DNA of 64,000 nucleotides from contig JAUICP010000003.1 in assembly GCA_030427805.1 (NCBI GenBank), forward strand, positions 131,758-195,757. Reading direction: 5' to 3'. Below the pieces are notes generated by a model, which worked only from the letters and a program-made list of their open reading frames with translations, had not been told where the DNA came from and searched no databases. The stretch is from Bdellovibrionia bacterium (GTDB taxonomy: Bacteria; Bdellovibrionota; Bdellovibrionia; Bdellovibrionales; JAGQZY01). Made by a program: the position numbers and the translations under genes. Positions 39,478 through 64,000 of this stretch are shown here, one piece after another; position 1 is the stretch's first letter, and each line of letters opens with the position of its first letter.

Positions 39478-40329
39478 TTAAACCGAGGCCCCTAAATAGA
39501 TACCGATACTCTTATTATTGATGGGGTCCGCCACAAGAGCCTTGCCTGTAATTTCATGGGATTTCGTAACATAGAGACTGAGATCCTCCGAGTAGCGACA
39601 AATTTCTTTGGATAGGAGTTTCTCTTTAGCCAAAAATGAGTGATTCATTCCCTTTTCATCGATAAGAGAAATTTCATCACCGGGCTCCCCCCAGAAAAGA
39701 AGAGATGAGAGGTCTTTGCTGAAAATTCGATTCTTGCCGGGGCTCTTCTCTACCATGACTGAAAAAAGGAGGTCGTAAAAATCTCGACCCTGCACTCCCT
39801 CGGAAAAGCTACTTTTAGATAAATCCTCTGCATATAAATCGACGGCGACGGCCAACGAAAATATCGACCAAAACTCTGACAACACTTTTTGGACGCGTCC
39901 AAAGGCCATTGACGGCCTCAGTCCGCTTCGACAGTTTAAAATGAGTATGATTCTTTTTGTGCCCAACGATTGTAGAACTGAAAGATGAAAGCGAATTAAC
40001 TTGGGATCCATGTTTTCAGGGTCAATCACAAAAAAAACGACGTCTGAATATAAAACCCCACTGAGGGTCACATCAAAGCGACTCAAGTGCCCCGGGTCAT
40101 CATGAAAATGCAGTCGATACCCCGAAACTTCACAAAAATTATGACTCACGTTCCAAGTGATATTTTTTTCTCGTTCAAAACTAAGACTATCGGTAATTTG
40201 GCTCCACTCTTCAAAGGCTTCAAGCCGATCCGACCAATGGGAGAGTAAGCGCCCTAACAAAGTCGACTTGCCACTATTGACCGCTCCTAAGCTGGCAATT
40301 TTAATATATCGCTCACTCCTTGATTTCAA
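39478..40329 (-). CDS. CysN-like GTPase-fold protein, truncated and divergent (283 aa)
   Basis: P-loop GAVNSGKSTLLGRLL and DDPGH (G3) match sulfate adenylyltransferase subunit 1. The NKxD position reads NCRS. TTG start overlaps the cysD stop (TTGA). Confidence 0.55.
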   Translation of the reverse strand: MKSRSERYIKIASLGAVNSGKSTLLGRLLSHWSDRLEAFEEWSQITDSLSFEREKNITWNVSHNFCEVSGYRLHFHDDPGHLSRFDVTLSGVLYSDVVFFVIDPENMDPKLIRFHLSVLQSLGTKRIILILNCRSGLRPSMAFGRVQKVLSEFWSIFSLAVAVDLYAEDLSKSSFSEGVQGRDFYDLLFSVMVEKSPGKNRIFSKDLSSLLFWGEPGDEISLIDEKGMNHSFLAKEKLLSKEICRYSEDLSLYVTKSHEITGKALVADPINNKSIGIYLGASV

Positions 40330-41234
40330 AAGTACCCCTCGCGTTTTCTTACCTCCATAGAGTACTCAGAAAAAGAGTCGTCTTCCCGCGAAGCCCGCTC
40401 CCTAGTTTTCAACCTATGATTTTCCGAAATGATCTCTGGTAAAATTTGGGCCTCCGACCGGATCGGTCTGGAATTGGTCATATCGCCAATGGTTCGAAAG
40501 CGGACAAGGGTTTCGATGCCTTCGCCCTCGTAATCACCGAAGGAAGCCAGTTTTAAACTCCCATCAGCTCGTTCAATAGTTCTACGCCGATGGGAATAGT
40601 AGAGTGAGCATAACTCAATTTTTCTAAAATGGGCGTAGCTGAGCACATCCTTTTCAAGCCAATTGTTGAGGGGAAAAGTTCTATAGTGAAAACCCGCCTC
40701 AGAGCCGAGCCCAATCCATGGCCAAATCTCAGCACTCTCATCTTCGGGTCGCCACGAGGAGTCCCGGTTAGAACGCTTTGAAAAAAACACTTCTTTTTGC
40801 CGGGCCTTATCTTCATCCCGCCGTCCGCCCCCGAGTAAAATATCATAGCCTTTTTCTTTTAGGACTTTCTTTAACGAGTGACTCTGGGAACGGTTTAAGC
40901 CAATTTTTGCATCGTTGACCACTTTTTCGATGACACAGGTTCTACCGGACCCTTGGAATATTTGATCGCGAAAGTTAATAACTTCTGAAAAATTCTTACC
41001 CGTGTCGATGTGAATTAGGTCATAGGATTTACCGCAGCTTTGGGCTGACATCTCAGCCAGAGCATGAAGAATCGTGGAGTCCTTACCGCCCGAAAAAAGG
41101 AGTCCTATCTTTGAGAAGTTTTGAAAAACACGGTCCAAAACAAATCGAGCTTCACTTTCAAGAAAATCAAGAACACTTTGATCTGTCAGAAACTTCTCCT
41201 CACGCCCGGACGTTCCCAATTCTAATCGATCCAC
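40326..41234 (-). CDS. cysD: Sulfate adenylyltransferase subunit 2 (PAPS-reductase fold)
   Basis: LFSGGKDSTILHAL PP-motif and a CysD-like length. GTG 41234 overlaps the cysC stop (GTGGATCGATTAG) and is preferred over the track ATG at 41273. Confidence 0.75.
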   Translation of the reverse strand: MDRLELGTSGREEKFLTDQSVLDFLESEARFVLDRVFQNFSKIGLLFSGGKDSTILHALAEMSAQSCGKSYDLIHIDTGKNFSEVINFRDQIFQGSGRTCVIEKVVNDAKIGLNRSQSHSLKKVLKEKGYDILLGGGRRDEDKARQKEVFFSKRSNRDSSWRPEDESAEIWPWIGLGSEAGFHYRTFPLNNWLEKDVLSYAHFRKIELCSLYYSHRRRTIERADGSLKLASFGDYEGEGIETLVRFRTIGDMTNSRPIRSEAQILPEIISENHRLKTRERASREDDSFSEYSMEVRKREGYF

Positions 41235-41746
41235 TTTTTCGCCTGGAGTTGCTTTTGAATTTCTGCAATACATGACTCGGGCGAAACACCTTCTGTACTC
41301 AAAGAAAGATCTGGGTTCAAAGGGACTTCAAATGGATCGTCAATTCCAGTAAAATTCTTCAAGGCCCCGCTTCGGGCCTGCTTGTATAGACCCTTCGGGT
41401 CCCTCTCTTCGCAAATTTCAAGGGGCGTCGATAGATAGACTTCAAAATAGTGATTCAAGCGTTCTCGAGCCGCTTTTCGCGCTTCTTCGTAGGGAGATAT
41501 TGTCGATACAATGACGAAATCAACATCTTTCAATTCCTTGATTTCATCGGTTATTTCCAAGTTGTTGTTGATTCGTCCCACTTTTGAAAAATCAGAATTT
41601 TTCTTGGTTTTTCGTCGAAGATCACCGTCGATTCTTTCGACCTTAAATGCTTTGACTTTGAGAGCTTGGGCTAAGAGGTCAGATAGGTGAGATTTGCCCG
41701 CTCCAGAAAGTCCAATAAACCATATTACCTTGGGAGTATTATTCAT
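41222..41746 (-). CDS. cysC: Adenylylsulfate (APS) kinase
   Basis: IWFIGLSGAGKSHL P-loop, IDGDLRR, ISPYEEARKAARE, ERDPKGLYKQARSGALKNFTGIDDPFE. Confidence 0.9.
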   Translation of the reverse strand: MNNTPKVIWFIGLSGAGKSHLSDLLAQALKVKAFKVERIDGDLRRKTKKNSDFSKVGRINNNLEITDEIKELKDVDFVIVSTISPYEEARKAARERLNHYFEVYLSTPLEICEERDPKGLYKQARSGALKNFTGIDDPFEVPLNPDLSLSTEGVSPESCIAEIQKQLQAKKWID

Positions 41747-41852: not shown

Positions 41853-42479
41853 TTGGAGCCCGAGGAACTGATAGAGTCATTGACTCCTGATAATAGGACT
41901 AAAGTAGGTATCAAAATGAGTGGAGGCACCGATAGCTCCCTTGCCGCTTACCTACTCGCAAAAAAATTTTCTAGAGACTCAAAAAAACGCCAAATAATTC
42001 CAATCATAATTACCGAACCAAAAGCTCCATTTCAATTACAGTTTGCCTCTCAAGTCATTGCCTTTATAGAGTCTCAATTTGCCTTTCGGTTTCAGACTCC
42101 AGAAACCTTTCTCCTCCAACAAGAAGACAAAATTGACTTTATGAGAACCATAGAAAATCAACTTTTTACCAACGATACCGTCGACCTTGTGATTTCAGCT
42201 GTTACCCACGAACCCAAAGATCCGACGTTTGATTACAAACACGGGCCAGATGATGATCGAACCCAAGAAAACCAAAAAAACCTTTGGGACGACCGCATTC
42301 TTACTCCCTTTATCAACATCGACAAAAAAGAAATTGCTGATTACTATGTCAAAAATGATCTCATTGAAAGTTTATTTAATCTCACAAGAAGCTGTGTGAG
42401 TACCACAAAAGACTTTTCCTTCCATTGCGGGAAGTGCTGGTGGTGTAAGGAGCGGCTTTGGGCATTTGGAAGGCTCTAA
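41853..42479 (+). CDS. QueC/ExsB-like PP-loop ATPase
   Basis: GIKMSGGTDSSLAAYLL (SGGxDS). C-terminal Cys cluster SCVS...HCGKCWWCKER, like the QueC zinc site. TTG 41853 is preceded by GGGAGG; the track ORF opens at 41694. Confidence 0.6.
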   Translation: MEPEELIESLTPDNRTKVGIKMSGGTDSSLAAYLLAKKFSRDSKKRQIIPIIITEPKAPFQLQFASQVIAFIESQFAFRFQTPETFLLQQEDKIDFMRTIENQLFTNDTVDLVISAVTHEPKDPTFDYKHGPDDDRTQENQKNLWDDRILTPFINIDKKEIADYYVKNDLIESLFNLTRSCVSTTKDFSFHCGKCWWCKERLWAFGRL

Positions 42480-42482
42480 AAA

Positions 42483-43181
42483 GTGATTAATAATAAAGAA
42501 GTAGAAAATATCGTCGTGATCAGTGCTGACCGAAATGGCAGCACGGCCTTTATGCACGAAGTACAAAGAGTTAAATCTGACAATTGCGATCACGAAATTT
42601 TCTTGGGCGAGTGTTTTTCTCAGGACGAAACAAAAAACCAACCTCCCAAATGGTGGACCCCTGAGAAGTACAGTCCTTCTCAGGTTGTCGATACAATAAA
42701 TTATGGCACTGGAAAACCCGTCATCCTAAAGGTTCAAATGACTTGGCCCAATTTCAATTCGAGTTATTTTGAAATCAATGCCTTTGAAAGGATATTTTTT
42801 CACAGAAACCTTGTCGAAAGCACCTTATCTCGCTGTATCGCCCAACTAACGGGCGTCTGGCATCGGAAGAAAGGTGAAACGCCTGCAAATAGCTCTCAGC
42901 CAATTTACGTCGATCCTGGGTATTTTCTCGAGCGATTTAACTATCGACTCGAAAGATATGAAAAGTACCTCGACGATATTTTTACGTGGAGCAGTAAGGT
43001 GGTTAACTATTCCAACTTTCAGTATTCTACCGAAAATCCTATTCTCAAAAACGCCAGTCAATCTGATCGAGTCGAAAACTACCATGAAATTTTGAGCTTG
43101 AAGACACCTCAACTTAAGTCCACAATCATTGACGATAGAGTCAATAACCATAGCAAACGCGTAGATAAGCTCTCATATTAG
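42483..43181 (+). CDS. Putative sulfotransferase (NodH/Stf0-like)
   Basis: GTG start. N-terminal VVISADRNGSTAF resembles the RSGST 5'-PSB loop. FFHRNLVESTLSRCIAQLTGVWH resembles the R-x-N/D...S...A...TG-x-W region of NodH/Stf0. Lies next to the PAPS genes. Confidence 0.5.
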   Translation: MINNKEVENIVVISADRNGSTAFMHEVQRVKSDNCDHEIFLGECFSQDETKNQPPKWWTPEKYSPSQVVDTINYGTGKPVILKVQMTWPNFNSSYFEINAFERIFFHRNLVESTLSRCIAQLTGVWHRKKGETPANSSQPIYVDPGYFLERFNYRLERYEKYLDDIFTWSSKVVNYSNFQYSTENPILKNASQSDRVENYHEILSLKTPQLKSTIIDDRVNNHSKRVDKLSY

Positions 43182-43219: not shown

Positions 43220-44407
43220 ATGTCTACTTTTTTGCGACGTTTTAGTGTTCAAATCCCATTTCTCATAATTTTCTTGTACAGCCAAATCGGTATGGGTAAC
43301 GATCAAGCTTTTTACGAGTTCTATCAAGGAAAACCAGTTTCAGACACAAAGGCGTGTGCCGATTTTCTATCTAAAAACGACAATCTTCAGAGAATTGCAT
43401 ACACGGTGAGCCATGAAGGAAAATCACTCGATCAAAAATGCTTGATAGAAGCCATTGAAAAAGTACCCTACACCTATTTTTATAACGTAAAAAGCTTCCA
43501 GGAATCCTACGACCTCATTTCGTACTACGACGCCCTTGTGCTAAGAGTGGGGCTCGCAAATGCTGATGCCTTAGTAAAACTCATTAAGCTTCTAAAAAAT
43601 GCAAGTCGTTTTGAACGTGTAACAAGCTATTCGAAGATTTGCCTCGATCGTTTTAAAGAAAAAACCTATAAAACCTGTGCCGCTGATTTATTGTATTCAT
43701 TAGCTTACATCAATTCAGACGAGAAAAGCTTTCAGAAGTATTTCCAAGAAGGCCTAGAAAAAGCTCGTAAATCCTCACCGACAAGTGAATTCTACTTCAT
43801 GTTTAATGAACTTAGGTTCTACGCCTTCAGGAATAATTTTCCAAAGGTCAGGGACATCCTTCGAAAAATGAGCTCTTCCGCTGTAATGAAGACCTGCTAC
43901 GACTGCCGAGCCAATATAATAATGGCGAGATCCTACTATTTGGCTCTTCAGGGCAAATTTCGATTAGCGAAAAAACTTTTAGATACCATTGATCAGTCAA
44001 AACTTTCTAATTCCGATAAGGAGTTCCTACGTAATAGTTATCTTGAAGTTTATCCATACCTATACGACTTTGATTCCGTTAAAAAGATTAAAGACCAATC
44101 TGGTAAAATCCTCAATCCTCCGGACTCCTATTCTAATCCACGATTATTTAACCAGCTCGGCATTATTATGATAATTAGTGAATACATCGAAACTGGCAAA
44201 ACCCCTGAAAGGCTTACGGCCGATTATCTCAATAGCATTAAAAGCTCGAGCCAAAGAGAGTACTTAAAGTACGAAATCGACACCTACAATGGCGTCGCCA
44301 AAGATAAACCAGTTTTTCCGGATTTCGTTAAATACATTGAATCTAGAATTAATTATGTGACTAAAGCCCGAAAAGACTACGCTGATAAGAGTAAGACCTC
44401 GAAGTGA
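43220..44407 (+). CDS. Hypothetical helical-repeat (TPR-like?) protein
   Basis: 395-aa ORF with a hydrophobic N-terminus and predicted all-helical composition. No catalytic motif seen. Confidence 0.4.
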   Translation: MSTFLRRFSVQIPFLIIFLYSQIGMGNDQAFYEFYQGKPVSDTKACADFLSKNDNLQRIAYTVSHEGKSLDQKCLIEAIEKVPYTYFYNVKSFQESYDLISYYDALVLRVGLANADALVKLIKLLKNASRFERVTSYSKICLDRFKEKTYKTCAADLLYSLAYINSDEKSFQKYFQEGLEKARKSSPTSEFYFMFNELRFYAFRNNFPKVRDILRKMSSSAVMKTCYDCRANIIMARSYYLALQGKFRLAKKLLDTIDQSKLSNSDKEFLRNSYLEVYPYLYDFDSVKKIKDQSGKILNPPDSYSNPRLFNQLGIIMIISEYIETGKTPERLTADYLNSIKSSSQREYLKYEIDTYNGVAKDKPVFPDFVKYIESRINYVTKARKDYADKSKTSK

Positions 44408-45576
44408 AAAAGCTAAAGTGCTACTATCCGGATCATTACACCTACATCGATGCCGTAGGTGACACCTACTATTGTTGCTACTCCCGGGGGCACTCAAGAG
44501 GGTCCATCCTCAAAGAAAACCTTGAAGATATTTTCAGGGGTCACACCTATGCTGAAATTCGTGAAAAACTAAAGGGCGGAGAATTTCCTGCTGGGTGCTT
44601 TACCTGTTCCAATTTAGAAAAGTCAGGACTCAGCTCTCCTCGGACCAAAAAAGAAATAGTACGAGATGGCCCCCCTCGATTACAAGAAATCGAAATGAAG
44701 TTGAGCAATAAGTGTAATTTTCGCTGTCGCATGTGCTACATAGGAAGCAGTTCGAGATGGGCAGAACTCCCTGAAATTCAAAGAAAGTATCGCAAGTCCG
44801 AAAGTCAAACCGAAGAATTTGACCAATCTATTGAAAAACACCTTCAACTTAAGCCCTATGCTAGCTGGCTTTCTAAAGAAAATCACTCTTTACAAAACAT
44901 ATTAGATTCTATGGGGGCCGTTGAACGAATTTCGTTTTCGGGAGGAGAGCCACTTTACCAAAACGAACACTACGACTTTCTAGACGCGATTCCGAAAGAT
45001 CAGAAGAGAAAAATTGAACTCTTTTATACGACAAACCTTTCAATGCTTAAGTTTGAGGGAAAAGCCATTGATCACTACTGGAACGACTTCAAGAGTGTCG
45101 AGCTGCAAGTGAGTGCTGATGGTGTTTACGACGTTTATGACTATATTCGAGAGGGTGGAAAATTCTCAACTCTTGAAAAAAATTTAAAGACAATTTCAAG
45201 TTGGGATTCGATCATTCGTACGAGTATCAACTGTACGATCCAAGCCTATAATATCTTTCAGATTCCAGAGATTACCCAATATTATCATTCAGAATTTCCA
45301 GATTTTGAGTTAAGACTCGCACACCTGGTGAACCCCCAATTCTTGTCTTCTCGAGTCTTCCCCAAAGTAACCACTGAGCAAATTCTTAAAAGAATTGAGA
45401 GTGCTAGCTACTCAGACACGACAAGTCCACAGGAAAACATCGACTTTATCAAGTCCGAGGACCTCAGCCACCTCTATGAAAAGTTTATGGCCTATACAGG
45501 TGAACTCGACAAGGAGTCTCATACAAGCTTTCGTGACTTAGCCAAGAAGTACGATATCATTTTGGAAGAAAAATAG
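44404..45576 (+). CDS. Radical SAM enzyme with an N-terminal Cys-rich (twitch/SPASM-like) module
   Basis: GTG start overlapping the upstream stop. CNFRCRMC (CX3CX2C) after an N-terminal C-x17-CC (with GDTYYC) and CFTC. Confidence 0.75.
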   Translation: MKKLKCYYPDHYTYIDAVGDTYYCCYSRGHSRGSILKENLEDIFRGHTYAEIREKLKGGEFPAGCFTCSNLEKSGLSSPRTKKEIVRDGPPRLQEIEMKLSNKCNFRCRMCYIGSSSRWAELPEIQRKYRKSESQTEEFDQSIEKHLQLKPYASWLSKENHSLQNILDSMGAVERISFSGGEPLYQNEHYDFLDAIPKDQKRKIELFYTTNLSMLKFEGKAIDHYWNDFKSVELQVSADGVYDVYDYIREGGKFSTLEKNLKTISSWDSIIRTSINCTIQAYNIFQIPEITQYYHSEFPDFELRLAHLVNPQFLSSRVFPKVTTEQILKRIESASYSDTTSPQENIDFIKSEDLSHLYEKFMAYTGELDKESHTSFRDLAKKYDIILEEK

Positions 45577-45586: not shown

Positions 45587-46033
45587 TTAAACAAATCGAT
45601 CAGTGACTTGAAGTACCGATGAAAGTTGACAAACAATACGATCACCCCTGCGCTTCGAAGGCAGTGCGAACATACTGTTCATCAAATTGAGATGCTGTAA
45701 GTAGTGCTGCTTAGAATTATATGCGGTTTCAAAAACCAAACTGTTGTCAGCACTATCAAAATACCGGTTCACCCGGCGCCCTGACACACCTAAAGACTTC
45801 AATAGATTTGTAAATGAAACTTGCTCCTCTGGGAGGTCGTGATCGAGCCAAAAATCTTCAAAAGACTCATAGACTTTTCCAGGGTGAAGACTGGACCGGA
45901 ACCGAGACTCTACGATAAATTGTCCATTGTTCTGCTCACCTACTTCACGGCCAGGCAGAAAACTCCCGAAAATTGGCTTACCAACTATAGGGGCGCAGAA
46001 GCCTAAAACTTGTAACAATTTACGTCTATTCAT
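45587..46033 (-). CDS. Hypothetical protein with an RR-containing N-terminus
   Basis: MNRRKLLQVLGFCAPIVG N-terminus. 148 aa. No family recognised. Confidence 0.45.
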   Translation of the reverse strand: MNRRKLLQVLGFCAPIVGKPIFGSFLPGREVGEQNNGQFIVESRFRSSLHPGKVYESFEDFWLDHDLPEEQVSFTNLLKSLGVSGRRVNRYFDSADNSLVFETAYNSKQHYLQHLNLMNSMFALPSKRRGDRIVCQLSSVLQVTDRFV

Positions 46034-46186: not shown

Positions 46187-48007
46187 ATGATGAATAGAGT
46201 CTACGCTCTTCAATTATCCAACTTCCATCCTTCAGCGACGCTTCCACAGGCGATTGGTAGCCTTTGGTCTTATATGTTTCAATTTGAGGCAATACGCGAT
46301 TCCTATAAGCTCGAGCGGGTTTTTTGGGAAAATGAGGATGCTGATCTCGTTTTGAAAGATATTAAAGATCCCCAAGTCCTGCTTTGCTCGTGCTATGTGT
46401 GGAACTGGAGTCGAACCCTCGAAGTGATGACCGAAGTAAAAAGGAAATACCCGAACTGCCTCATCATAGCCGGTGGACCTGAACCCGAGTATTCAGTGGA
46501 GTTCATGCAAGCTCATCCCATGATCGACATTCTTATACCCTACTACGGAGAAGAAAGCCTTAAACAAGTCTTAGTCAAGAATCTCTCCGAAAGAGATTTC
46601 AGTGAAATCGGTGGAATTATCACAAAGGACTTTTACAATCGCGAGCGGCTCGGCTTCGATCTCTCTGACATCGAAAGTCCCTACCTCAATGGATTTTACG
46701 ATAAACTCTTAGCACAAAAACGACCCGAGACTAAAAGTGTCAGAGTGGTCTACGAAAGTAATCGAGGCTGCCCCTTCAGTTGTACATTTTGTGACATTGG
46801 AGACTCGGCCTATACCAAGATACGAACTTTTGATCTCGACCGCTGTAAAAATGAACTTGAATGGATCGTGACTAATAATATTTCAACAATCGATGTTGCC
46901 GATGCTAACTTTGGAATGTTTCAACGGGACGAAGAACTCGTGGACTACCTCATCGAACTTAAGTGGAAGCACAACTGGAAGGGGCGATTTTTACCCACGT
47001 GGAGTAAAAAGAAAGGACAGAGAGTTCTTTCTATTGCTAAGAAAATTATAAAAAACGGATTGGATAGCGTCTTTGGATTGAGCTTGCAATCGATTCACCA
47101 AGATACGCTAAAAAATGTCAAAAGAACAAACGCCTTCGATCTAGAAGAACTCAGCACAATTGTTCAAGAAATGAACAAAGACAAGGTTAACGTATACACT
47201 GAGTTTATCTTTCCAATGCCGGGTGATACCTTAGAAATTTTTAAGAACAGTATTTACCAAGTTCTAGATATGGAACACCCTTTTAATAAGTTTCAAATTA
47301 ATCACTTAAGTCGATTTAACAACACTCAGATTGCCAGCCAAAATAGTCAAAGTGAATTTGAAATTGAATGGGTCGATATCAAAGGATTTACCAGACATTA
47401 TTACGGAAAGAACCTTAAAGATACCATAGCCGTATCAATGAAGGGAATGAGCCGAGAGGACGTCTTTGAAGGCCTGTTCTTTGCGAAGTGCTTTGTAATT
47501 CCTATTTACTTTTACGGCACCCTTCGCAAAATGATTGATGAGCTACTCGCCAAAGAAGGTATTGAACGAAGTGAATTTGTAAAGAAGCTCTACCAAAATA
47601 TTCACTCCCTTGAGAGTTTTAAAACGTTTAAGCAGCAGCAAAAAGATCACTATTTTGCTGCTATCGATAAAGGCGCGCAATTTGGACAGGTCCTCTCTGA
47701 AGATGCCAACGAGTTCTTTCCCGAGTTTGCCATTGCCCACCAGTATTATTTGAACAGCGACTTCTATGACTTCTTAAGGGCCGAATACACAGACTACCGC
47801 GAGCTGATCGACTTCTCTGAAAAGACTATATGGAGAAAAAACAGATTCTCTCTGACTTTTAAAATGTCTAAATACCTGAAGGGAACCTGGTCAATTAGCG
47901 ACGAACGCCAGGTCGATTTGAATAACTATTTACAGGAGGTTTATGTCAGTGGTCGTTTCGATGATCGTTGGCAAAGCCAATCGATAAGGAAAATAGAAGC
48001 ATGTTGA
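46187..48007 (+). CDS. B12-binding-domain radical SAM enzyme (class B), paralog A
   Basis: N-terminal Rossmann-like B12-domain pattern (VLLCSCYVWNW...LIIAGGPEP). NRGCPFSCTFCD (CX3CX2C). Confidence 0.8.
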   Translation: MMNRVYALQLSNFHPSATLPQAIGSLWSYMFQFEAIRDSYKLERVFWENEDADLVLKDIKDPQVLLCSCYVWNWSRTLEVMTEVKRKYPNCLIIAGGPEPEYSVEFMQAHPMIDILIPYYGEESLKQVLVKNLSERDFSEIGGIITKDFYNRERLGFDLSDIESPYLNGFYDKLLAQKRPETKSVRVVYESNRGCPFSCTFCDIGDSAYTKIRTFDLDRCKNELEWIVTNNISTIDVADANFGMFQRDEELVDYLIELKWKHNWKGRFLPTWSKKKGQRVLSIAKKIIKNGLDSVFGLSLQSIHQDTLKNVKRTNAFDLEELSTIVQEMNKDKVNVYTEFIFPMPGDTLEIFKNSIYQVLDMEHPFNKFQINHLSRFNNTQIASQNSQSEFEIEWVDIKGFTRHYYGKNLKDTIAVSMKGMSREDVFEGLFFAKCFVIPIYFYGTLRKMIDELLAKEGIERSEFVKKLYQNIHSLESFKTFKQQQKDHYFAAIDKGAQFGQVLSEDANEFFPEFAIAHQYYLNSDFYDFLRAEYTDYRELIDFSEKTIWRKNRFSLTFKMSKYLKGTWSISDERQVDLNNYLQEVYVSGRFDDRWQSQSIRKIEAC

Positions 48008-54545: not shown

Positions 54546-54558
54546 ATTCAGGGGATTT

Positions 54559-57099: not shown

Positions 57100-57642
57100 T
57101 TACTTCTTCCTGAATTGCATCCAAGATTCTTGATTCTTCTCGAGAAAACCGAGAACCGACTCTGCATTAGTTTCTGTAAAACAGGTGTGAGGGTCATGGC
57201 TAAAGTCTTCGTAGAAAAGCTTTTTAAGTTTTCCATTCTCGATAATCATAGCGTAGCGGTGGCTCCGAAAGCCATAACCCTCACTCGTAAAATCAACGAG
57301 CATGCCAATACTCTTAGCCCAATCTCCATTGCCATCCGGTAGAAATTTTAAAGAAGAAAGTCCCTGATCCTTTGCCCACGCATTGAGAACATGACTGTCA
57401 TTCACTGCTGTCACATAGATTTCCGAAAACCCAAAGTCTTTGAATTTCTCTAGATTAAACTGATAGCCACCGAGCATCGATGATGGGTAATCAGACCAAA
57501 AGGCTCCCGGTATGCCCAGAACGAGGCACAAGCCCTCACCTAAAACCTCTCGACTCGAACGAGAAATATAATTCACACCTTCCTTGAAAAAAAATGAAGT
57601 CTCGGGAATATCTTCACCCAATCGAAGCATTCTATGGGCCAT
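57100..57642 (-). CDS. Peroxiredoxin-5/redoxin-fold protein lacking the peroxidatic cysteine
   Basis: LVLGIPGAFWSDYPSS where Prx5-type enzymes have PGAFTPTCS. VNDSHVLNAWAK, FLPDGNGDWAKSIG, RSHRYAMIIENG. ATG 57642 is preceded by GGGAGGG. Confidence 0.6.
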   Translation of the reverse strand: MAHRMLRLGEDIPETSFFFKEGVNYISRSSREVLGEGLCLVLGIPGAFWSDYPSSMLGGYQFNLEKFKDFGFSEIYVTAVNDSHVLNAWAKDQGLSSLKFLPDGNGDWAKSIGMLVDFTSEGYGFRSHRYAMIIENGKLKKLFYEDFSHDPHTCFTETNAESVLGFLEKNQESWMQFRKK

Positions 57643-58918
57643 GGGCCCTCCCTTCATTTAAAATTTTTCGATCCACTTTAAAACCCAGGGAGTGAGCGGC
57701 CATGGGCATATGGTCGATGATTGAAATGCCTCGTTTGTTATCGAGGGCTTCAATAAAGCGACGCAGATCATCTTTAAGATGACTCTTGTCTTCTTGCTTT
57801 TCGATAAAATTGATAATGCCTTGTATTTCAGAAATCAGCTTTTCATCTCTTTCACAACTGATTTGACTTTTGAATTCTGAAATCAGGCTTGATAGGTCGC
57901 TTACAATCCATTCTTTTTCGTGAGGTTCTAAAAGGTCTGGCTGTTGGAACTCGGGGTGATAAACGCGAAACAAGTGAAAACCAAAACTCTTATAGGGCCA
58001 CATCCAACGAAAATAATCGCGCAATCCAAATAAACTGTAAGCACTGATACTGTGTTGAAAATTAAGACCGACATGGTCATCCACTCGGTCCATCACTCGA
58101 TGCACGTTTTTAAGCCAGGAATTCCATTTTGTCGGGTAACGAATATATTCATTTTGTTTTTCATAACCATCGACACTGAAATTAATTTCGACTTCGTTAA
58201 AATTACCCGTTAGCTCGATAAAACGTCTTGGCACGACAATACCGTTGGTCGTAACTTGCAAGCGCATACCCTGGCTCTGCCCTGACTCAACGAGGATTTC
58301 GAGAAACTTCATCATGTAGGGGTTAATGAGTGGTTCCCCGCCAGTGAATTTCAAATTGGTGAGATCTTGAGAAATATTTAATAGGTCCGACCAAAACTTT
58401 GGGTCTTCAGCCCATTGATAGTCAATATCGAACAGCTGACTATTCACATCTCCAGTAAGACCCGTTTTAAAGGGAGGTTGTTCATCCCAACCCATTTCAC
58501 GCCATTCTTTCAAAATGCGGCTCGAAGAACTGGGGTCGCAAAATAGGCAACTGGCATTGCACTTGTTCCCCAATTTAAGGTCCAAGCTTTTTGGTTTTTC
58601 CAGAGCTTCTGCAAAAACACCCAATTCTCTTATGGCTCTTTGTCGATAACTTTCGGCCCCATTGCTTTCGTATTCAAAACAAGCTTCACATTCTTTGATC
58701 GGCTCCCCGGCCAAATGCTTCTCTCTCACCCAGTTCATGTAATCACTTTGCCAAAACTCACTGAGTGAATGGCTCTTAACATCGAATTGAAAGGTCCCGG
58801 GAAACTCTGATACAAAACCGTGGGCCTCTGCCGAAGAACAACAGAGCTTATACTGCCCCGTTGGCGTCGTCGTGATTTGGGAAAATGGATAGGCGCAATA
58901 ATGGCGTTTTTTCGACAA
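57632..58918 (-). CDS. Radical SAM enzyme with an N-terminal Cys-rich (twitch/SPASM-like) module
   Basis: TTG start. N-terminal C-x17-CC (with GQYKLC) and CEAC, then CNASCLFC (CX3CX2C). Same layout as the 44404 protein. Confidence 0.75.
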   Translation of the reverse strand: MSKKRHYCAYPFSQITTTPTGQYKLCCSSAEAHGFVSEFPGTFQFDVKSHSLSEFWQSDYMNWVREKHLAGEPIKECEACFEYESNGAESYRQRAIRELGVFAEALEKPKSLDLKLGNKCNASCLFCDPSSSSRILKEWREMGWDEQPPFKTGLTGDVNSQLFDIDYQWAEDPKFWSDLLNISQDLTNLKFTGGEPLINPYMMKFLEILVESGQSQGMRLQVTTNGIVVPRRFIELTGNFNEVEINFSVDGYEKQNEYIRYPTKWNSWLKNVHRVMDRVDDHVGLNFQHSISAYSLFGLRDYFRWMWPYKSFGFHLFRVYHPEFQQPDLLEPHEKEWIVSDLSSLISEFKSQISCERDEKLISEIQGIINFIEKQEDKSHLKDDLRRFIEALDNKRGISIIDHMPMAAHSLGFKVDRKILNEGRAHGP

Positions 58919-59020: not shown

Positions 59021-59590
59021 ATGCTCTATCATCGCTTTATACCTCAGCTGAAATACAAAGCCCATATTTTCGAATCTATTTTATCATTCGCTCGGGAAAA
59101 TCCAAAACTATGGAAGAACGGCTATGATTCAAATGGTCAATTATGGAACATCAGAGAAATGCCTCTCGATTACAAATCCTTCCCCATCCTCGAAGAGATC
59201 TACGAAAGCCTCAAAGCGGAGTTCAAAAGGCCGTCCTTCTTTCTGAGCCATGTGCCTCCCGGAGGACTTGTTAACCACGTGGATCATAGGAAGTGGGGAA
59301 ACCTTGCTTTCCCCTTGGATGGCCCCTTTGACAACACACCCATTTCATTTCACGACCCCTTCAATCAAGTTATTGAACAATTTCACTTTAAAAAAACCGA
59401 GGACAATTCATATATTCCCGCTGTATTCAACACGAGAATGCTTCATTCGGTTCAAGTTCCTCTCGACAACAAAGGGGAGCGAATTGTTTTGATGATGGAT
59501 CTCTTTGAGTGGCCCGGTCATATTTTTGACAAAATCGATCAGGGCGAATTCTGGAAGTCCGGGCCTACCCTTAAGTGGCAGACCCCTTAG
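59021..59590 (+). CDS. HxD...H protein (cupin/Fe(II)-oxygenase-like), C3
   Basis: VPPGGLVNHVDHRKWGNLAFPL...VFNTRMLHSVQV...GERIVLMMDL. A clear paralog of C2. Confidence 0.45.
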   Translation: MLYHRFIPQLKYKAHIFESILSFARENPKLWKNGYDSNGQLWNIREMPLDYKSFPILEEIYESLKAEFKRPSFFLSHVPPGGLVNHVDHRKWGNLAFPLDGPFDNTPISFHDPFNQVIEQFHFKKTEDNSYIPAVFNTRMLHSVQVPLDNKGERIVLMMDLFEWPGHIFDKIDQGEFWKSGPTLKWQTP

Positions 59591-60885
59591 ATTTTCATAT
59601 CGAAGCTCAAATTGACTAATTGCCGCAATCGACGCAAAGAGCCAGTTTGTTTCTCGCCATCTAAGACAGCAGTGAGCTCATTAAATGCCTTCTTATCACA
59701 TAGAGCGAACTCGGTGAGCGCTTTAAACTTACTCGACAAGTCAGGACGATTTCCTGATACAAATCCGCGATTAAAAGAAAAATCTTTTTTGATAACTCCT
59801 GAAACCGTTTCAATTTCGATTTGATGATCCATAAACTCCAGATTCGGATTTATCTGCACATGAATCTCATTTTTCTGGGAATGAAAAGTAGAAATCAATT
59901 CTTCGCAAATTAAGAAACTCGAAAAATCCACATCCTGCTTCTGTAAACACAGCCAAAGACAAAATTCGGGGCTAAAGCCAACTTCATAGTTATTTTGAGG
60001 TTGATCGTAATGCAGTATTTTTCGCGAGTAGGAAGAAAGCTTAAGGGAAACAGATTTTATATCCCGACGACCCAATGATTCTGAATTCATTAAGGCTAAA
60101 AAATTTTCCACCACGGGAACCAGGCAGTGACAGAGTGGATAGGTTTTCGAGTGGATGAAATTAAGGTTAGACTCTAAATATGGAGAGTGGGGCTCAGGGT
60201 TTCCTGAATACAATTCAACCAGGCGTTTAAAATCATCATCCGTCATTGGCTCAGCCCGTGGCATTGATCGAACGATCTGACAGGCGACAATGGCATTCTG
60301 GGAGGCACGAGCCGAATTGAGAAACTTCGATGGACTCGCAAAAACTAAATGGTTCCCAGAAAGAAGAGTACTCACTGACTTAAGGGCACTGAGCTTTTCT
60401 TCGTCGGAAAATTCCAGAAAGTGGCAACAGGCTAATGTTGCGGCGATACTGCCAAGAGTGCCCGTTCCATGCCAGCCACTTCCGTAGTGGTGAGGATTGA
60501 AATAGGGGCCAAAAAACAGAAGTGACGACATTCCATAGTAAGCGGATTCGAGCAAGTGATCGACTGATTTTTCATCGTCCGGAAGCGATAAAAGGGCCGA
60601 AAACACGACCGCCGAGGGATGGGTTTCGCCAAAGAATTCCGAGTCATCAAATTCGTGGTAATGGCTGAGGTAACCGAGCAAAAAGGATCGATCTACAGCC
60701 CGCATGGTATCCGATTTGCGCCAGTTTTTAGATTCGAAGTAAGTAGAAAAGAATTCATCTGCGCTGCGTTTTGCATAGGCGTAAATCAAACAGGAGAGCC
60801 AGTCCTTTAAAAGTCTTTTTGCCTCTAGGCAGCCCTTGGTATTTTTACTGGTATGTCCATTGAGACGATTCACTATTTCAAGCAA
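59587..60885 (-). CDS. MmgE/PrpD-family protein
   Basis: TTG start. HYHEFDDSEFFGETHPSAVVFSALL and GWHGTGTLGSIAATLACCHFL match the two hallmark PrpD-family regions. Confidence 0.75.
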   Translation of the reverse strand: MLEIVNRLNGHTSKNTKGCLEAKRLLKDWLSCLIYAYAKRSADEFFSTYFESKNWRKSDTMRAVDRSFLLGYLSHYHEFDDSEFFGETHPSAVVFSALLSLPDDEKSVDHLLESAYYGMSSLLFFGPYFNPHHYGSGWHGTGTLGSIAATLACCHFLEFSDEEKLSALKSVSTLLSGNHLVFASPSKFLNSARASQNAIVACQIVRSMPRAEPMTDDDFKRLVELYSGNPEPHSPYLESNLNFIHSKTYPLCHCLVPVVENFLALMNSESLGRRDIKSVSLKLSSYSRKILHYDQPQNNYEVGFSPEFCLWLCLQKQDVDFSSFLICEELISTFHSQKNEIHVQINPNLEFMDHQIEIETVSGVIKKDFSFNRGFVSGNRPDLSSKFKALTEFALCDKKAFNELTAVLDGEKQTGSLRRLRQLVNLSFDMKI

Positions 60886-60976: not shown

Positions 60977-61630
60977 ATGGAAACTGATCTCAAGCAACTG
61001 AAAGCCCTACAAAGACTTTACTCAATGGGTGATTGGCTTAAACTACCCAATTTCGATTGCAAAAAGTTGACTGAGGAAATTCAAAGTTTCGAAAATCAGT
61101 GGCCCATATACAATCCTCGAAAACTAAAAAATAGATATGGCTTGAGCGTGACCAGTCTCGACGGTGGGATCTCAGGAGTTCCCGACCTGGACAGCCTCTT
61201 CGAATACAATAATGAAAACGGCACACAATACAATAATCAGTCCTTCAAGAGCTTGACGCCCGTTTATCACGCCTCTCCAGAATTACAGAAAATCTTAGAG
61301 CCCTATTTGCCTTGGCTCGGACGGTGCCACTTTATACGCCTCGAACCGGGGGGCTACTTTCCTGAACACTATGACATCGGTAAATTTAATTACGACGAGG
61401 ATGAAATCAGGTTGATCGGAATGGTCCAGAACACTGATTACTATAGTTTTAAGTTTTGCTATGAAAAACAAATCTTAACTCATCTTTACGACGGAGAGCT
61501 ATATTATTTTAATGCCAATAAAACTCACTCAGTTTTTGCCATGGATGCTCCCGTCACTTTTCTAGTGATTACTTTGAAATTTACGACTGAAACCTATGAG
61601 ACACTCGTAAAAAATTATGTCTGCTCCTAA
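60977..61630 (+). CDS. HxD...H protein (cupin/Fe(II)-oxygenase-like), C4
   Basis: LEPGGYFPEHYDIG...YYFNANKTHSVFA. Confidence 0.45.
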   Translation: METDLKQLKALQRLYSMGDWLKLPNFDCKKLTEEIQSFENQWPIYNPRKLKNRYGLSVTSLDGGISGVPDLDSLFEYNNENGTQYNNQSFKSLTPVYHASPELQKILEPYLPWLGRCHFIRLEPGGYFPEHYDIGKFNYDEDEIRLIGMVQNTDYYSFKFCYEKQILTHLYDGELYYFNANKTHSVFAMDAPVTFLVITLKFTTETYETLVKNYVCS

Positions 61631-62936
61631 GAAAAAACTTTTACTTTTATCTCACGAGCGCTCCCTCAATAAATCTCAATCCCTTATTAGATACTATAGG
61701 AGTCAATTCGATATAACCCTCGTGGTTAATCAAGAGGTCAGTCCCCATAAATCCTATACCCAGCTTTGTTATGAAATTCTTATCAGTCCTAGCTTTCAGG
61801 CCGATGAGATCACGGCCAAAATTAAAAGTTGCGATAAAATTCTCTGTGTCAGCGAAAACCTTCTCCCAGTACAATCTCAGCTCGAAACTTACTACGGTAT
61901 AGATAACTTAAACTTTGAGACAGCAAAGATTTTATCTGACAAATTTCTATTGGCAGATTATCTCAAAAGAAATCATGCTCCCGTCAAACATCCCACGACA
62001 ACGATTGCGAGAAATAAAGAGGATCTTTCGAGTCTGGAAGGCAGCTTTATTATTAAGCCAAGCATCGGCACAGGGTCCAATTACTTTCTCGATAATCAAT
62101 TAGATGGTCTCGATTATTCGTTCTGGGGCTCCCATGGGGCCCTCAGCGAGGAACTCAAAAAAAGGCAAGCCTTGGAGCTGTTCTTTAAGCTCAATCGCGA
62201 GGGAATTCAAAAAAAACGCTTTAACAACAAAAAGAATTTCATGCTTTTTCAAAAGTATATCCCGGCAGATGGCCCGGTTTACAGCCCCATTGGCTATTTT
62301 GGCGAACACGGTCTCGTCATCCCATTTTATTTAAAGCTTATACGCTTTAACTCAAAATTCGAAAATGCCGATTTTCATTCGCCTGATCTCCACTTAAATG
62401 AGCTTTGCCATTCCGAAGAGAGACCATCAATTCTTGGGGACCTATTGGTAATGAGTGTTGCAAAAGAAGAAGTTCCCATGGAATTTCAGCACCAAGCTGA
62501 GTCCTATCTCAGTTTTTTATTTGAATCTCTAAAAATTAAAGAGTTGTTCTTTGCCGGCCCAGATCTACATAAAAGAGGAAATGAGTTTTTTGCAATCGAT
62601 TTCAATCCGCGAATGGGGCACTTCTTCAATCTCATCGATCACGTGAATAATAATAATTTAATCGAGTCCTTGGTCAATGGACACCCCCTTAATAGCCTCA
62701 ACCACTGCCTGTGGGGAGCGATTCCTACGAATCACTCAGAAATCGCCAACGAAGGGAGCCTTTCGGCAATTCGAGACTATATACCGCAAGAGGCTTTACC
62801 CCAGAGCTACCCCCATCCCCTTCCTTCAAAAGCCTACCTGCAAAGTAAACCTCGTTCACTCCAGGTTTTACTCCAAGGGAGAAATGAGGCCGAACTCACG
62901 CGAAATTATTTTGAAATCATTCAAAAATTTAACTAG
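61617..62936 (+). CDS. ATP-grasp-like ligase
   Basis: FIIKPSIGTGS, FMLFQKYI, FFAIDFNPRMG. The layout is compatible with ATP-grasp. Overlaps the C4 stop by 14 nt. Confidence 0.55.
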   Translation: MSAPKKKLLLLSHERSLNKSQSLIRYYRSQFDITLVVNQEVSPHKSYTQLCYEILISPSFQADEITAKIKSCDKILCVSENLLPVQSQLETYYGIDNLNFETAKILSDKFLLADYLKRNHAPVKHPTTTIARNKEDLSSLEGSFIIKPSIGTGSNYFLDNQLDGLDYSFWGSHGALSEELKKRQALELFFKLNREGIQKKRFNNKKNFMLFQKYIPADGPVYSPIGYFGEHGLVIPFYLKLIRFNSKFENADFHSPDLHLNELCHSEERPSILGDLLVMSVAKEEVPMEFQHQAESYLSFLFESLKIKELFFAGPDLHKRGNEFFAIDFNPRMGHFFNLIDHVNNNNLIESLVNGHPLNSLNHCLWGAIPTNHSEIANEGSLSAIRDYIPQEALPQSYPHPLPSKAYLQSKPRSLQVLLQGRNEAELTRNYFEIIQKFN

Positions 62937-63709
62937 AGATCATTGAGAATCTGATTGAGAATGGCCCGTCTGGCTGGTTCGTCTGACTTCAATAGCACAT
63001 CTATATGTTCGAACTGACTCGATTGACTCTTAAATGATTCATAATCGAAAAATAGATTTTCTAGAACGTCTTTTTCGACGAAGAGATTTTCAAAATCAAA
63101 AGAAATGACTCTGGCTATTTTGTTCTTTTCGTGGGCCATAAAGCTATGGTGAGCCTGCTTGATTCGACTTATTTGTGAGTCCTTGAACTCTTTTTTGAGA
63201 GCGGCTGGTAATTTTGACCAGGAGTCGAGTTCTGCTTGAAAAATGTGAACACGACTTAGATTTTTAAAAAAAGAATCCCTATGAAGGGGTAAGACTCCTG
63301 GGTAAACAGCGAAAATCCTCTCGAAACTATGGGGACTTGATAGTCCAAAATAACCACCGATACTTAATCCCAAGTGAACCTGCGCCTGACTCGCCCCTTC
63401 AGGGATCGATTGCAGAAAGTCCCAAAGGCTCACCGAAAACTGATCTTTATACTCCTCAGAATAGCCCCAGTTCAGCTTTTCAATTTTTAAAGACGAAAAG
63501 TGATCGAAAAGCTCGACCTCAACACCCTGGGATAAAAAGAAATCTGCAATATTGATTTCACTTTGACTAATACCATTGCTACCATGACTAATAGCGATTG
63601 TTTTGGTTTTCTCTCTTATACGCGGAGTCAAACGCCAAACAGATTGATTAAAATCTATGGATACATTTGAAGTACTAAAATTAGAACCATTGAGTGAGTC
63701 AAAAGGCAT
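62933..63709 (-). CDS. Alpha/beta (dienelactone-type) hydrolase-like protein
   Basis: IAISHGSNG, GLSIGG nucleophile elbow, QAHHSF. Confidence 0.5.
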   Translation of the reverse strand: MPFDSLNGSNFSTSNVSIDFNQSVWRLTPRIREKTKTIAISHGSNGISQSEINIADFFLSQGVEVELFDHFSSLKIEKLNWGYSEEYKDQFSVSLWDFLQSIPEGASQAQVHLGLSIGGYFGLSSPHSFERIFAVYPGVLPLHRDSFFKNLSRVHIFQAELDSWSKLPAALKKEFKDSQISRIKQAHHSFMAHEKNKIARVISFDFENLFVEKDVLENLFFDYESFKSQSSQFEHIDVLLKSDEPARRAILNQILNDL

Positions 63710-64000
63710 ATTAGAGCAATTTTATCAAAACTGCTCTAATGATGGAATTAAAAATAATTCCTCCGAAAAACAAATGAAGATCAATCGCTTTGATGGTGAT
63801 CAGTGGTGGGGAGTCCTTTTCGCGGATCAACTTATCGCAGTTAGCGGAGCCTACCCCTGTGACGATTTTGAGAAGAATGGTTGGCGCCTTCTTTTTCGAT
63901 CCGCCACTCTCAAGAAATTTCGCTCAAAGGCAGGACATTTTTCGAGAAATCTAAATCATGATTTTTGCTATGGCCATATTCTCCCTCTACAACTGGAGTT
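63657..64000 (+). CDS. Hypothetical protein, 5' part (runs off the window end)
   Basis: My translation from ATG 63657 is MDTFEVLKLEPLSESKGILEQFY...WWGVLFADQLIAVSGAYP...WRLLFRSATLKKF, open to nt 64000. It would overlap the divergent gene start by 53 nt, so the true start may be ATG 63774 (MKINRFDG). Confidence 0.3.
   Translation, partial: MDTFEVLKLEPLSESKGILEQFYQNCSNDGIKNNSSEKQMKINRFDGDQWWGVLFADQLIAVSGAYPCDDFEKNGWRLLFRSATLKKFRSKAGHFSRNLNHDFCYGHILPLQLE

Follow-up and report, generated by a model that had tools for sequence, protein, structure and literature searches.

A putative composite biosynthetic cluster of Bdellovibrionota shares candidate tailoring genes with marine phage cassettes

Cassettes of radical S-adenosylmethionine (SAM) genes have been described in pelagimyophages as 'radical SAM cassettes' within a host-recognition cluster, with no function assigned (PMC7029224), and a review lists tctA together with a 2-oxoglutarate (2OG)-Fe(II) oxygenase among the auxiliary genes of SUP05 viruses, likewise with no function assigned (PMC6359870). 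Here we analyze a bacterial gene cluster that shares families with such phage cassettes. It occupies the right-hand part of a 64,000-nucleotide stretch of DNA, the window, from a Bdellovibrionia bacterium (GenBank assembly GCA_030427805.1, contig JAUICP010000003.1, positions 131,758 to 195,757). The predicted proteins suggest a composite biosynthetic cluster for an extensively tailored small molecule with a carboxylic or amino acid as its scaffold, a reading to which we assign a probability of roughly 60%, with the product class deduced from the enzyme families. The product is most likely a heavily C-methylated, hydroxylated molecule derived from a carboxylic or amino acid, probably sulfated in this strain only and carbamoylated in relatives. 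The cluster is an orphan built from known enzyme superfamilies, as the first-pass annotation had proposed: no characterized pathway was found, five conserved proteins belong to no named family, and a full-text literature search found no description of the cluster.

We compared all window proteins with eight further independent Bdellovibrionota loci. An alignment of the cobalamin (B12)-binding radical SAM protein (B12-rSAM), searched against species-representative genomes, finds relatives in metagenome-assembled genomes of Bdellovibrionota only; four such loci belong to Bdellovibrionia (95% identical), Pseudobdellovibrionaceae, Bacteriovoracaceae (on a 2.9-Mb chromosome) and Bdellovibrionales. 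Ten genes recur in 8/8 loci: AcnL, AcnS, the HMGL-like enzyme, B12-rSAM B, HxD2, the peroxiredoxin (Prx)-like protein, N-terminal-twitch radical SAM B, PrpD, HxD4 and p439 (Table 1). The pyridoxal-phosphate (PLP) enzyme is present in 7/8, HxD3 and p258 in 6/8. A core of ~14 genes (49.7–63.7 kb) is thus co-inherited across Bdellovibrionota, and since its content is kept while gene order and orientation vary between loci, the core genes are likely to be functionally coupled. B12-rSAM A, HxD1 and rSAM_333 occur in three of the eight loci (L004, L011, L117), and the QueC-like gene in two of these. The same three loci carry a carbamoyltransferase of the NodU/CmcH type, detected by Pfam in L004 and L117 and predicted in L011 from a read-through open reading frame (ORF). 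The cysN-like, cysD, cysC, p395, p148 and N-terminal-twitch radical SAM A genes are found in the window only; the 95%-identical contig ends before that region. Where the first-pass annotation saw a single unit of >24 kb, there are therefore three layers: the core, an accessory block (41.9–49.7 kb) and a block for the supply of 3'-phosphoadenosine 5'-phosphosulfate (PAPS; 39.5–41.7 kb).

Two further observations concern these comparisons. In L004, an insertion-sequence-type transposase (rve + HTH) lies inside the cluster at 5895–6854, between PrpD and the HxD3 counterpart, a 197-aa ORF. A group of B12-rSAM homologues at 30–34% identity was excluded from the family, the one example checked (L035) lying in an unrelated cluster; this locus (GCA_045589815.1, JAZNPT010000015.1, 10001–21004), found through a 31%-identity match, encodes four radical SAMs (two B12-binding, the other two of ~610 aa) alongside an amine-oxidase/phytoene-desaturase-like flavoprotein, a Fer2 protein and a GT2 protein.

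Gene calls were taken from an identical public Logan contig (67-kb) and the ORF map was compared over 39.4–64 kb, which holds 25 complete genes and a further one truncated at the window edge, at a coding fraction of ~0.98. Most same-strand neighbors overlap or abut, with TTGA, GTGA, ATGTTGA and three ATGA junctions, convergent genes overlap by 4–14 nt, and the strand switches 7 times within 24 kb; the gene map, the co-directional blocks and the start/stop overlaps reported earlier were reproduced at their places. Families were assigned with Pfam and NCBIfam at curated cut-offs. Nine cluster proteins have no Pfam match, and a PHROGs search of these nine found none either. No nonribosomal peptide synthetase, polyketide synthase, glycosyltransferase, transporter or regulator was detected by Pfam in the window cluster, as first stated. 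The Logan contig extends ~20.8 kb beyond the right edge of the window; p258 is followed there by a 139-aa ORF and by genes for patatin, DUF3307, SohB peptidase, GDPD and GreA, which places the right end of the cluster at ~63.7 kb. The genes earlier listed up to the window edge stand, except that the last, cut ORF is probably not a member. Genes upstream of 35.5 kb are unrelated housekeeping genes (Fpg, pseudouridine synthase, adenylate cyclase, peptidases).

Table 1. Genes between 39.4 and 64 kb of the window; cut-offs are those of the curated models
Feature	Position	Strand	Evidence and remarks
CysN-like GTPase remnant (283 aa)	39478..40329	-	GTP_EFTU 51 bits; strain-specific PAPS block
CysD, ATP sulfurylase catalytic subunit	40326..41273	-	NF003587 232 bits (cut-off 195); PAPS_reduct 82 bits
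CysC, adenosine 5'-phosphosulfate (APS) kinase	41222..41746	-	TIGR00455 153 bits (cut-off 138.7); APS_kinase 145 bits
QueC-like PP-loop ATPase (187 aa as called)	41916..42479	+	Longest ORF starts at 41694; accessory block
p232, 232-aa sulfotransferase-like protein	42483..43181	+	Motifs and fold matches
p395, 395-aa protein, hydrophobic N-terminus	43220..44407	+	No family match; window only
N-terminal-twitch radical SAM A	44404..45576	+	NF033640 259 bits (cut-off 170); SPASM + Radical_SAM; CNFRCRMC
p148, 148-aa orphan	45587..46033	-	No family match; no homologue in related loci
B12-binding radical SAM A (606 aa)	46187..48007	+	B12-binding + Radical_SAM; KedN5 family 179 bits (cut-off 700)
HxD1, HxD..H protein 1 (246 aa)	48001..48741	+	H154, D156, H209/H212 invariant
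rSAM_333, radical SAM (333 aa)	48748..49749	+	Radical_SAM 36 bits; CALECPAC
AcnL, isopropylmalate isomerase (IPMI)/homoaconitase-type hydro-lyase large subunit	49736..50998	-	NF001614 469 bits (cut-off 385)
AcnS, LeuD/DmdB-type small subunit	50995..51513	-	TIGR02087 112 bits (cut-off 109); 8/8 loci
HMGL-like condensing enzyme, homocitrate/isopropylmalate synthase type	51500..52672	-	HMGL-like 110 bits
HisC/CobD-like PLP enzyme (aminotransferase or decarboxylase)	52669..53655	-	Aminotran_1_2 98 bits; 7/8 loci
SAM methyltransferase	53646..54614	-	Methyltransf_23 30 bits; core, shared with phages
B12-binding radical SAM B	54559..56445	-	B12-binding 39 bits + Radical_SAM 49 bits; KedN5 205 bits (cut-off 700)
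HxD2, HxD..H protein 2 (205 aa)	56479..57096	-	H94, D96, H154 invariant; 8/8 loci
Prx5-like protein without peroxidatic Cys	57100..57657	-	Redoxin 54 bits; phrog_2281 133 bits; 8/8 loci
N-terminal-twitch radical SAM B (428 aa, TTG start)	57632..58918	-	NF033640 297 bits (cut-off 170), residues 6–407
HxD3, HxD..H protein 3 (189 aa)	59021..59590	+	BLAST E 1e-9 vs HxD2; 6/8 loci
MmgE/PrpD-family protein (dehydratase or decarboxylase type)	59587..60873	-	MmgE_PrpD_N 68 bits
HxD4, HxD..H protein 4	60977..61630	+	Predicted Fe(II)/2OG-oxygenase fold, Asp/Asn/Pro-hydroxylase-like; H131, D133, H184 invariant
p439, 439-aa putative ATP-grasp-type ligase	61617..62936	+	Weak PDB matches + motifs; 8/8 loci
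p258, alpha/beta hydrolase, dienelactone-hydrolase-like (258 aa)	62933..63709	-	GLSIGG elbow; 6/8 loci
139-aa ORF, 5' part	63774..64000	+	Probably outside cluster (full gene on longer contig)

The tailoring genes include those of radical SAM proteins. Five are encoded in the whole cluster, two with a B12-binding domain, as first counted; all carry the CxxxCxxC motif and score 36–49 bits against Radical_SAM (Pfam cut-off 29.5). Both N-terminal-twitch proteins exceed the NF033640 cut-off and cover positions 3–394 of the 398 in that model, and protein B is 52–64% identical in the eight loci. The public gene call of protein B, which begins at 58738 (368 aa), leaves out the N-terminal twitch domain. 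The two B12-rSAMs fall below the KedN5 cut-off, covering the N-terminal 60% of the model; their B12-binding and radical SAM architecture suggests methyltransferase activity. B12-rSAM B is 45–64% identical in 8/8 loci and ~40% in phage cassettes. The neighboring SAM methyltransferase shows 59–70% identity in each of six Bdellovibrionota loci compared by homology and 50–53% in phage cassettes, and further Bdellovibrionota neighborhoods also show a Methyltransf_23 gene beside the B12-rSAM.

Four small proteins, earlier put forward as putative Fe(II) oxygenases, share an H-x-D and distal H pattern that is invariant across the orthologues of each. The assignment is clearest for HxD4, whose AlphaFold2 (AF2) model (pLDDT 94.7) has the Fe(II)/2OG oxygenase fold. 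Its best Foldseek match is Cpz10 (7v4o, E 5e-10), followed by L-proline cis-4-/3-hydroxylases and AspH; there are 406 PDB fold matches at E <= 0.001, 2OG oxygenases make up nearly all of the 50 listed, and the viral fold matches are annotated as Asp/Asn/Pro hydroxylases. Cpz10 is the 2OG-dependent beta-hydroxylase of caprazamycin biosynthesis (PMC9814697). Among PDB sequences the HxD4 profile finds Cpz10 alone (E 0.01), and in a word-indexed search the family comprises 45 clusters, with one member carrying PF05118. The invariant R116 and R145 and the near-invariant K182 are candidate 2OG-binding basic residues. HxD2 (42–46% identical in phage cassettes) and HxD3 (48–55%) are paralogues by sequence comparison; their joint profile found nothing among PDB sequences and matches HxD4 at E 8e-5 in such a way that the HxD and distal-His motifs coincide. 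HxD1 matches the HxD4 profile weakly (E 0.01, probability 4%), with its motifs in the same register. The prediction of four oxygenases thus stands on fold for HxD4 and on homology for HxD2 and HxD3, and is weak for HxD1.

The Prx5-like protein matches PDB 1nm3 (E 1e-28) as well as 26 other chains of Prx type or with a thioredoxin domain, with PGAFTPTC of the Haemophilus Prx5 hybrid aligning to PGAFWSDY. A tyrosine replaces the peroxidatic cysteine in all orthologues listed, and on this substitution the protein should not be classed as a peroxidase. It had been described as a Cys-less Prx fold: the fold and the missing peroxidatic cysteine stand, although other cysteines are present. Two more families complete the conserved tailoring set. 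p439 contains invariant K147, G151, G153, D328, N330 and R332, with P148, Q212 and P331 conserved at >=90%; the resulting K-P-x-x-G-x-G, Q212 and D-x-N-P-R motifs would fit an ATP-grasp ligase. A five-sequence profile gave weak PDB matches to 4wd3 (an L-amino-acid ligase, E 0.13) and to the carbamoyl-phosphate-synthetase-like (CPS-like) 2pn1; no Pfam domain is found in any of 101 homologue clusters, and identity is 26–34% in phage and marine contigs. Orthologues of p258 give weak to clear PF01738 DLH matches and are 30–33% identical in phage cassettes.

The precursor module comprises a condensing enzyme, a two-subunit hydro-lyase, a PLP enzyme and a PrpD-family protein. AcnL is 52–62%, the HMGL-like synthase 31–42% and the PrpD-family protein 28–36% identical in the eight loci. 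The best equivalog of the synthase is NifV (163 bits, cut-off 463), and the PLP enzyme scores 163 bits against HisC (cut-off 277) and 140 bits against CobD (cut-off 291). The set resembles carbon-chain elongation followed by transamination, as first proposed. The condensing enzyme, the hydro-lyase pair and the PLP enzyme are present; the enzyme of oxidative decarboxylation is absent from every locus examined, and 2-oxoacid elongation is therefore incomplete as encoded, there being no Iso_dh-type dehydrogenase. In L116, a second MmgE/PrpD gene (502 aa, 20493–21890) lies a few kilobases from the cluster, besides the cluster's own PrpD.

In the accessory block, the QueC-like protein matches QueC of Pfam at 31 bits over its C-terminal part only, and TIGR00364 at 24 bits against a cut-off of 150. 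It combines an SGGTDS PP-loop with a C-terminal CGKCWWC, and by sequence appears QueC-like in mechanism without being a member of the QueC family; its homologues are 38–40% identical in L004 and L011 and 27–48% in phage cassettes. B12-rSAM A is 49–52% identical in L004, L011 and L117 and 39–54% in phage cassettes, and is invariably followed by HxD1, phages included. The corresponding identities of rSAM_333 are 47–53% and 48–51%, and in the phages its gene adjoins TctA. No homologue of p395 was found in any Bdellovibrionota or phage locus compared; its stop overlaps the start of the next gene (GTGA). Cluster membership of p148 is doubtful.

The PAPS block had been annotated as cysC, cysD and a cysN-like gene that together form a dedicated PAPS supply. 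CysC and CysD lie above their cut-offs. The CysN-like protein is a 283-aa remnant that scores 31 bits against TIGR02034 (cut-off 336); its G1 and G3 motifs are present, the G4 motif NKxD reads NCRS, and with G1–G4 incomplete and the protein short of full-length CysN it is probably not a functional GTPase partner of CysD. Homologues of the three genes were found neither in the related Bdellovibrionota loci compared nor in phage operons, so the supply stands as a feature of the window alone. PAPS sulfotransferases are recognized by a 5'-phosphosulfate-binding (5'-PSB) loop and a 3'-phosphate-binding (3'-PB) motif. Although p232 has no Pfam or NCBIfam match, it contains both (RxGST and R...S); across five family members R17, G19, S20 and T21, and R108, N109 and S116, are invariant. 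The family is rare, with 10 representatives among 1.84 billion proteins. The AF2 model has low confidence (pLDDT 57.7), and ~44 of the top 50 PDB fold matches of this low-confidence model are PAPS sulfotransferases, including Stf0 (best E 0.015). A single-sequence PDB match proved spurious, falling on a RecA repeat, and the profile found nothing relevant among PDB sequences. Given the motifs, the fold matches and the presence of cysD and cysC ~0.7 kb away, p232 is likely, but not proven, to be a sulfotransferase, and looks like the NodH/Stf0-like enzyme of the first-pass annotation.

Outside Bdellovibrionota, the relatives of the cluster lie in marine phages. A search with B12-rSAM B returned ~16 close relatives at 45–95% identity, followed by a large ~40%-identity group that is abundant in marine metagenomes. 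This group has members on IMG/VR contigs (87–256 kb, ~33% GC), where tblastn of the window proteins reveals a single-strand, tightly packed operon with identities of 30–55%. Its order is N-terminal-twitch and other radical SAMs, QueC-like, B12-rSAM B, Prx-like, HxD2, HxD4, HxD3, B12-rSAM A, HxD1, methyltransferase and rSAM_333, with p439 and p258 homologues on the opposite strand. One locus (L033) has the order QueC-like (48%), p232 (48%), rSAM_333 (51%) and TctA, and so keeps the adjacency of the QueC-like and p232 genes seen in the window. TctA, a carboxylate permease family (Pfam 200 bits), lies inside the phage operon, where the start of its ORF and the stop of rSAM_333 overlap. Synteny with the phage operons extends over tailoring genes from both halves of the window cluster, accessory block included; neither the five precursor-module genes nor the cys genes were found in them by tblastn. 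An HxD4 alignment search of metagenomes gave at least 557 matches, from which 80 loci were retrieved, 25 of them of at least 15 kb; among these 25 long marine loci, TctA adjoins HxD4 in 22 and p439 does so in 14. Three marine loci (L060, L072, L075) contain the trio of HxD4, TctA and p439 with at most a few other window families, and are without B12-rSAM B, the Prx-like protein, HxD2 and the methyltransferase.

The flanks of the cassette contigs match phrog_1314 (388 bits) and phrog_1297 (336 bits) and carry Mtd_N tail-fibre-type domains, and one flanking gene is common to 801 GenBank phage records. Contig Ga0208150_1000001 (305 kb) contains the cassette twice (L054, L055), 165,363 bp apart, which implies a phage genome of ~165 kb; the contig looks like an assembled concatemer of that genome, and the spacing agrees with the 164,766-bp IMG/VR contig behind L013. 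No cultured phage was found to carry the B12-radical SAM. We infer 'pelagimyophage' as a putative label for the cassette contigs from the ~33% GC, the ~165 kb and the published study. GC content in the window is 0.40–0.41 at 42000–48000 and 54000–56000, against 0.43–0.47 in most of the window, a dip that would fit uptake of the accessory block from DNA of lower GC, for example that of the 33%-GC phages. An 88-aa family is conserved in the phage contigs near VWA/AAA genes; it lies outside the cassette and was rejected as a precursor peptide.

These genes can be arranged into a pathway, which we propose from the predicted enzyme families. The HMGL-like enzyme would condense acetyl-CoA with a 2-oxoacid to an alkylmalate or tricarboxylate, which the PrpD-family protein and the hydro-lyase pair would dehydrate and rehydrate, as in methylcitrate or homocitrate chemistry. 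Since no dehydrogenase is encoded, the pathway probably uses a hydroxy- or unsaturated polycarboxylate rather than a chain-extended 2-oxoacid. The PLP enzyme may add or remove an amino group, or decarboxylate. The B12 and twitch radical SAMs would C-methylate or rearrange unactivated carbons, the HxD..H oxygenases would hydroxylate, and the QueC-like ATPase could activate a carboxylate toward an amide or nitrile. Hydroxyls would be O-sulfated in the window strain and O-carbamoylated in relatives; p439 might join the acid to an amine and p258 hydrolyze an ester or amide. The phages would obtain the same acid by TctA import or from host metabolism, not by synthesis, and HxD4, TctA and p439 may represent the minimal functional unit of the phage system. 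Because the precursor module is confined to the bacteria and the carboxylate permease to the phages, the shared tailoring enzymes are likely to act on such a carboxylic acid. The tailored, sulfated amino- or oxo-acid molecule of the first-pass annotation is thus retained in part: the cluster is real and orphan, sulfation appears strain-specific, elongation is incomplete, and the product class is still deduced.

Several points weigh against a small-molecule pathway of this kind. No NCBIfam equivalog cut-off is reached by the HMGL-like, PLP or PrpD proteins, whose substrates cannot be assigned from these scores; the nine loci encode no Iso_dh-type beta-decarboxylating dehydrogenase (Pfam neighborhoods; L009 by tblastn only). 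The earlier ATP-grasp assignment of p439 is unproven, as a 36-sequence profile, deeper than the one that gave the two weak matches, found no PDB relative. The p232 model is of low confidence, with no fold match reaching E 0.001, and the role of TctA is deduced from its family name. Peptide modification commonly involves twitch/SPASM and B12 radical SAMs, the HxD4 fold matches also include two kinds of enzyme with protein substrates (AspH and prolyl-4-hydroxylases), and the phage cassette adjoins tail-fibre-type genes (PMC7029224), which would fit protein modification as well.

The serious alternative is accordingly a protein- or peptide-modifying system, resembling those of ribosomally made peptides with post-translational modifications (RiPPs) or directed at an adhesin or tail fibre used to recognize prey or host, with the oxoacid module as an add-on; we consider it unlikely, though worth serious attention. 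Besides the twitch/SPASM domains, the HxD4 similarity to AspH and prolyl-4-hydroxylases, and the position of phage cassettes beside Mtd_N tail-fibre-type genes in the host-recognition cluster of the pelagimyophage study, it is favored by the scores of B12-rSAM B against the RiPP C-methyltransferase model TIGR03975 (77 bits) and the glutamine C-methyltransferase model of methyl-coenzyme M reductase (MCR; 41 bits). Maturation of proteusins (polytheonamide-type) likewise unites several B12-rSAM C-methyltransferases with other radical SAMs, an Fe/2OG hydroxylase and a SAM methyltransferase in a single operon. The window cluster, by contrast, lacks a precursor peptide, leader-binding domain, dehydratase and protease, and contains metabolite enzymes, with a permease in the phage operon. 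When the small ORFs of 15 loci were compared all against all, the only matches were alternate-frame shadows of large genes, and no conserved small ORF lay outside known genes, in agreement with the earlier statement that no convincing RiPP precursor is present, with a divergent or distant precursor being possible. Other features also argue for a small molecule: the enzymes closest to HxD4 in structure have free substrates of the amino-acid type, each of five metabolite-type enzymes is retained in 7–8 of the 8 Bdellovibrionota loci, the phage operon contains a carboxylate permease, and sulfo- and carbamoyl-transfer alternate, which is typical of small molecules or sugars.

The last feature also suits an island for the modification of a cell-surface glycan or lipid (lipopolysaccharide (LPS), capsule or lipid A), which we regard as improbable. 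Sulfation and carbamoylation are classic sugar decorations, exemplified by NodH/NodPQ and NodU, and epimerase or GT2 genes lie near some loci. These are outside the core and in single loci only, while the conserved set has no glycosyltransferase, sugar-nucleotide enzyme, flippase or polymerase. LPS-related genes are among the phage accessory genes in the pelagimyophage paper (PMC7029224); glycan decoration, however, would not call for an oxoacid/PLP/ligase module.

A variant of a known pathway, either a phosphonate of the phosphinothricin/FR-900098 type or an elongation of the coenzyme-B/leucine type, is very improbable. A homocitrate-synthase-like enzyme, aconitase and B12-rSAM do co-occur in phosphonate and coenzyme-B pathways, as their classes do here, and PhpK-family models score 42–52 bits, far below their cut-off of 600. 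Pfam finds no PEP (phosphoenolpyruvate) mutase in the cluster proteins or related loci, there is no isopropylmalate or homoisocitrate dehydrogenase, and all synthase equivalog cut-offs are missed; with neither mutase nor dehydrogenase present, we rejected the phosphonate and leucine/coenzyme-B readings as largely refuted. Chance juxtaposition of unrelated operons, which the seven strand switches in 24 kb and the absence of counterparts of the cys block, p395 and p148 from other loci could suggest, is least probable of all and is refuted for the core and accessory block, since the gene-neighborhood check advised earlier finds the core in 8/8 loci in shuffled order and genes of both region halves are contiguous in phage operons; only p148 and p395 could be such cases.

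The reading of a small-molecule cluster has several consequences if it holds. It would describe a natural-product or cofactor pathway without a characterized member, drawn from families known for difficult C-H chemistry, namely B12 and twitch radical SAMs and small Fe/2OG hydroxylases, and one in which a peroxiredoxin fold is repurposed without its catalytic cysteine. The HxD4 matches in marine metagenomes, numbering at least 557, imply that the pathway is environmentally common, and its phage genes have so far been listed as unexplained cassettes or auxiliary genes. The bacterial precursor module offers a chemical lead, a 2-oxoacid-derived alkylmalate or tricarboxylate, to the substrate of the phage cassette, and the same metabolite may serve both a bacterial predator and phages. 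A bolder version, which we advance only tentatively, is that predatory Bdellovibrionota and abundant marine T4-like phages share one hitherto unrecognized pathway of up to ~20 genes and up to ~11 radical SAMs that turns a carboxylic or amino acid into a new type of densely C-methylated, hydroxylated metabolite, optionally sulfated or carbamoylated, for invading Gram-negative cells, with the predator making the precursor and the phage importing it via TctA.

Some features of the window lie beside or outside the cluster. Rfam and tRNA scans of the window found no RNA elements. Directly left of the cluster, a 679-aa protein (37408–39447, +) has two CxxCH haem-binding motifs and no Pfam match; a 44% homologue also lies directly beside the cluster in L004 (1–1376), and the gene could belong to a conserved genomic context or to the cluster itself. 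A pentapeptide-repeat protein (Pfam 90 bits) and a ChaN/Tiki haem-binding-type protein (165 bits) are encoded in the unrelated region upstream (26839–27630, +).

Among described systems, each part of the cluster has a partial counterpart. The precursor module recalls LeuA/LeuCD/LeuB, AksA/AksDE/AksF and HphA/HphCD/HphB with transamination, in that a synthase-like enzyme, a two-subunit hydro-lyase and an aminotransferase stand side by side; it differs in having no dehydrogenase in the nine loci, an extra PrpD-family protein and a synthase below all equivalog cut-offs. Methylcitrate or alkylcitrate logic, and the PrpD-family cis-aconitate decarboxylase that leads to itaconate, likewise combine a condensing enzyme, MmgE/PrpD and an aconitase-family hydro-lyase, whereas the synthase here is HMGL-like rather than citrate-synthase-like and no lyase is present. 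As in NodPQ/NodH/NodU and the saxitoxin SxtO/SxtN/SxtI system, cysD and cysC adjoin an Stf0/NodH-type sulfotransferase-like gene, and relatives of the window cluster carry a NodU/CmcH-family carbamoyltransferase instead of the cys and sulfotransferase-like genes. The scaffold genes are entirely different from both systems, the cysN partner is degenerate, and the sulfotransferase assignment is of moderate confidence. Cpz10 and the free-proline 3-/4-hydroxylases, the best structural neighbors of HxD4, are also small double-stranded beta-helix proteins with an HxD..H iron site, at only 12–16% sequence identity. The phage link explains the relatives of the cluster and not its chemistry: the phage cassettes differ from it in having up to ~11 radical SAMs and TctA and in lacking the HMGL/PrpD/hydro-lyase/PLP module and the cys genes. 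The cassettes of uncultured marine T4-like phages (PMC7029224, PMC6359870) contain orthologous families at 30–55% identity and in matching order, namely B12-rSAM B, Prx-like, HxD2, HxD4, HxD3, B12-rSAM A, HxD1, methyltransferase, QueC-like, p232, rSAM_333, p439 and p258.

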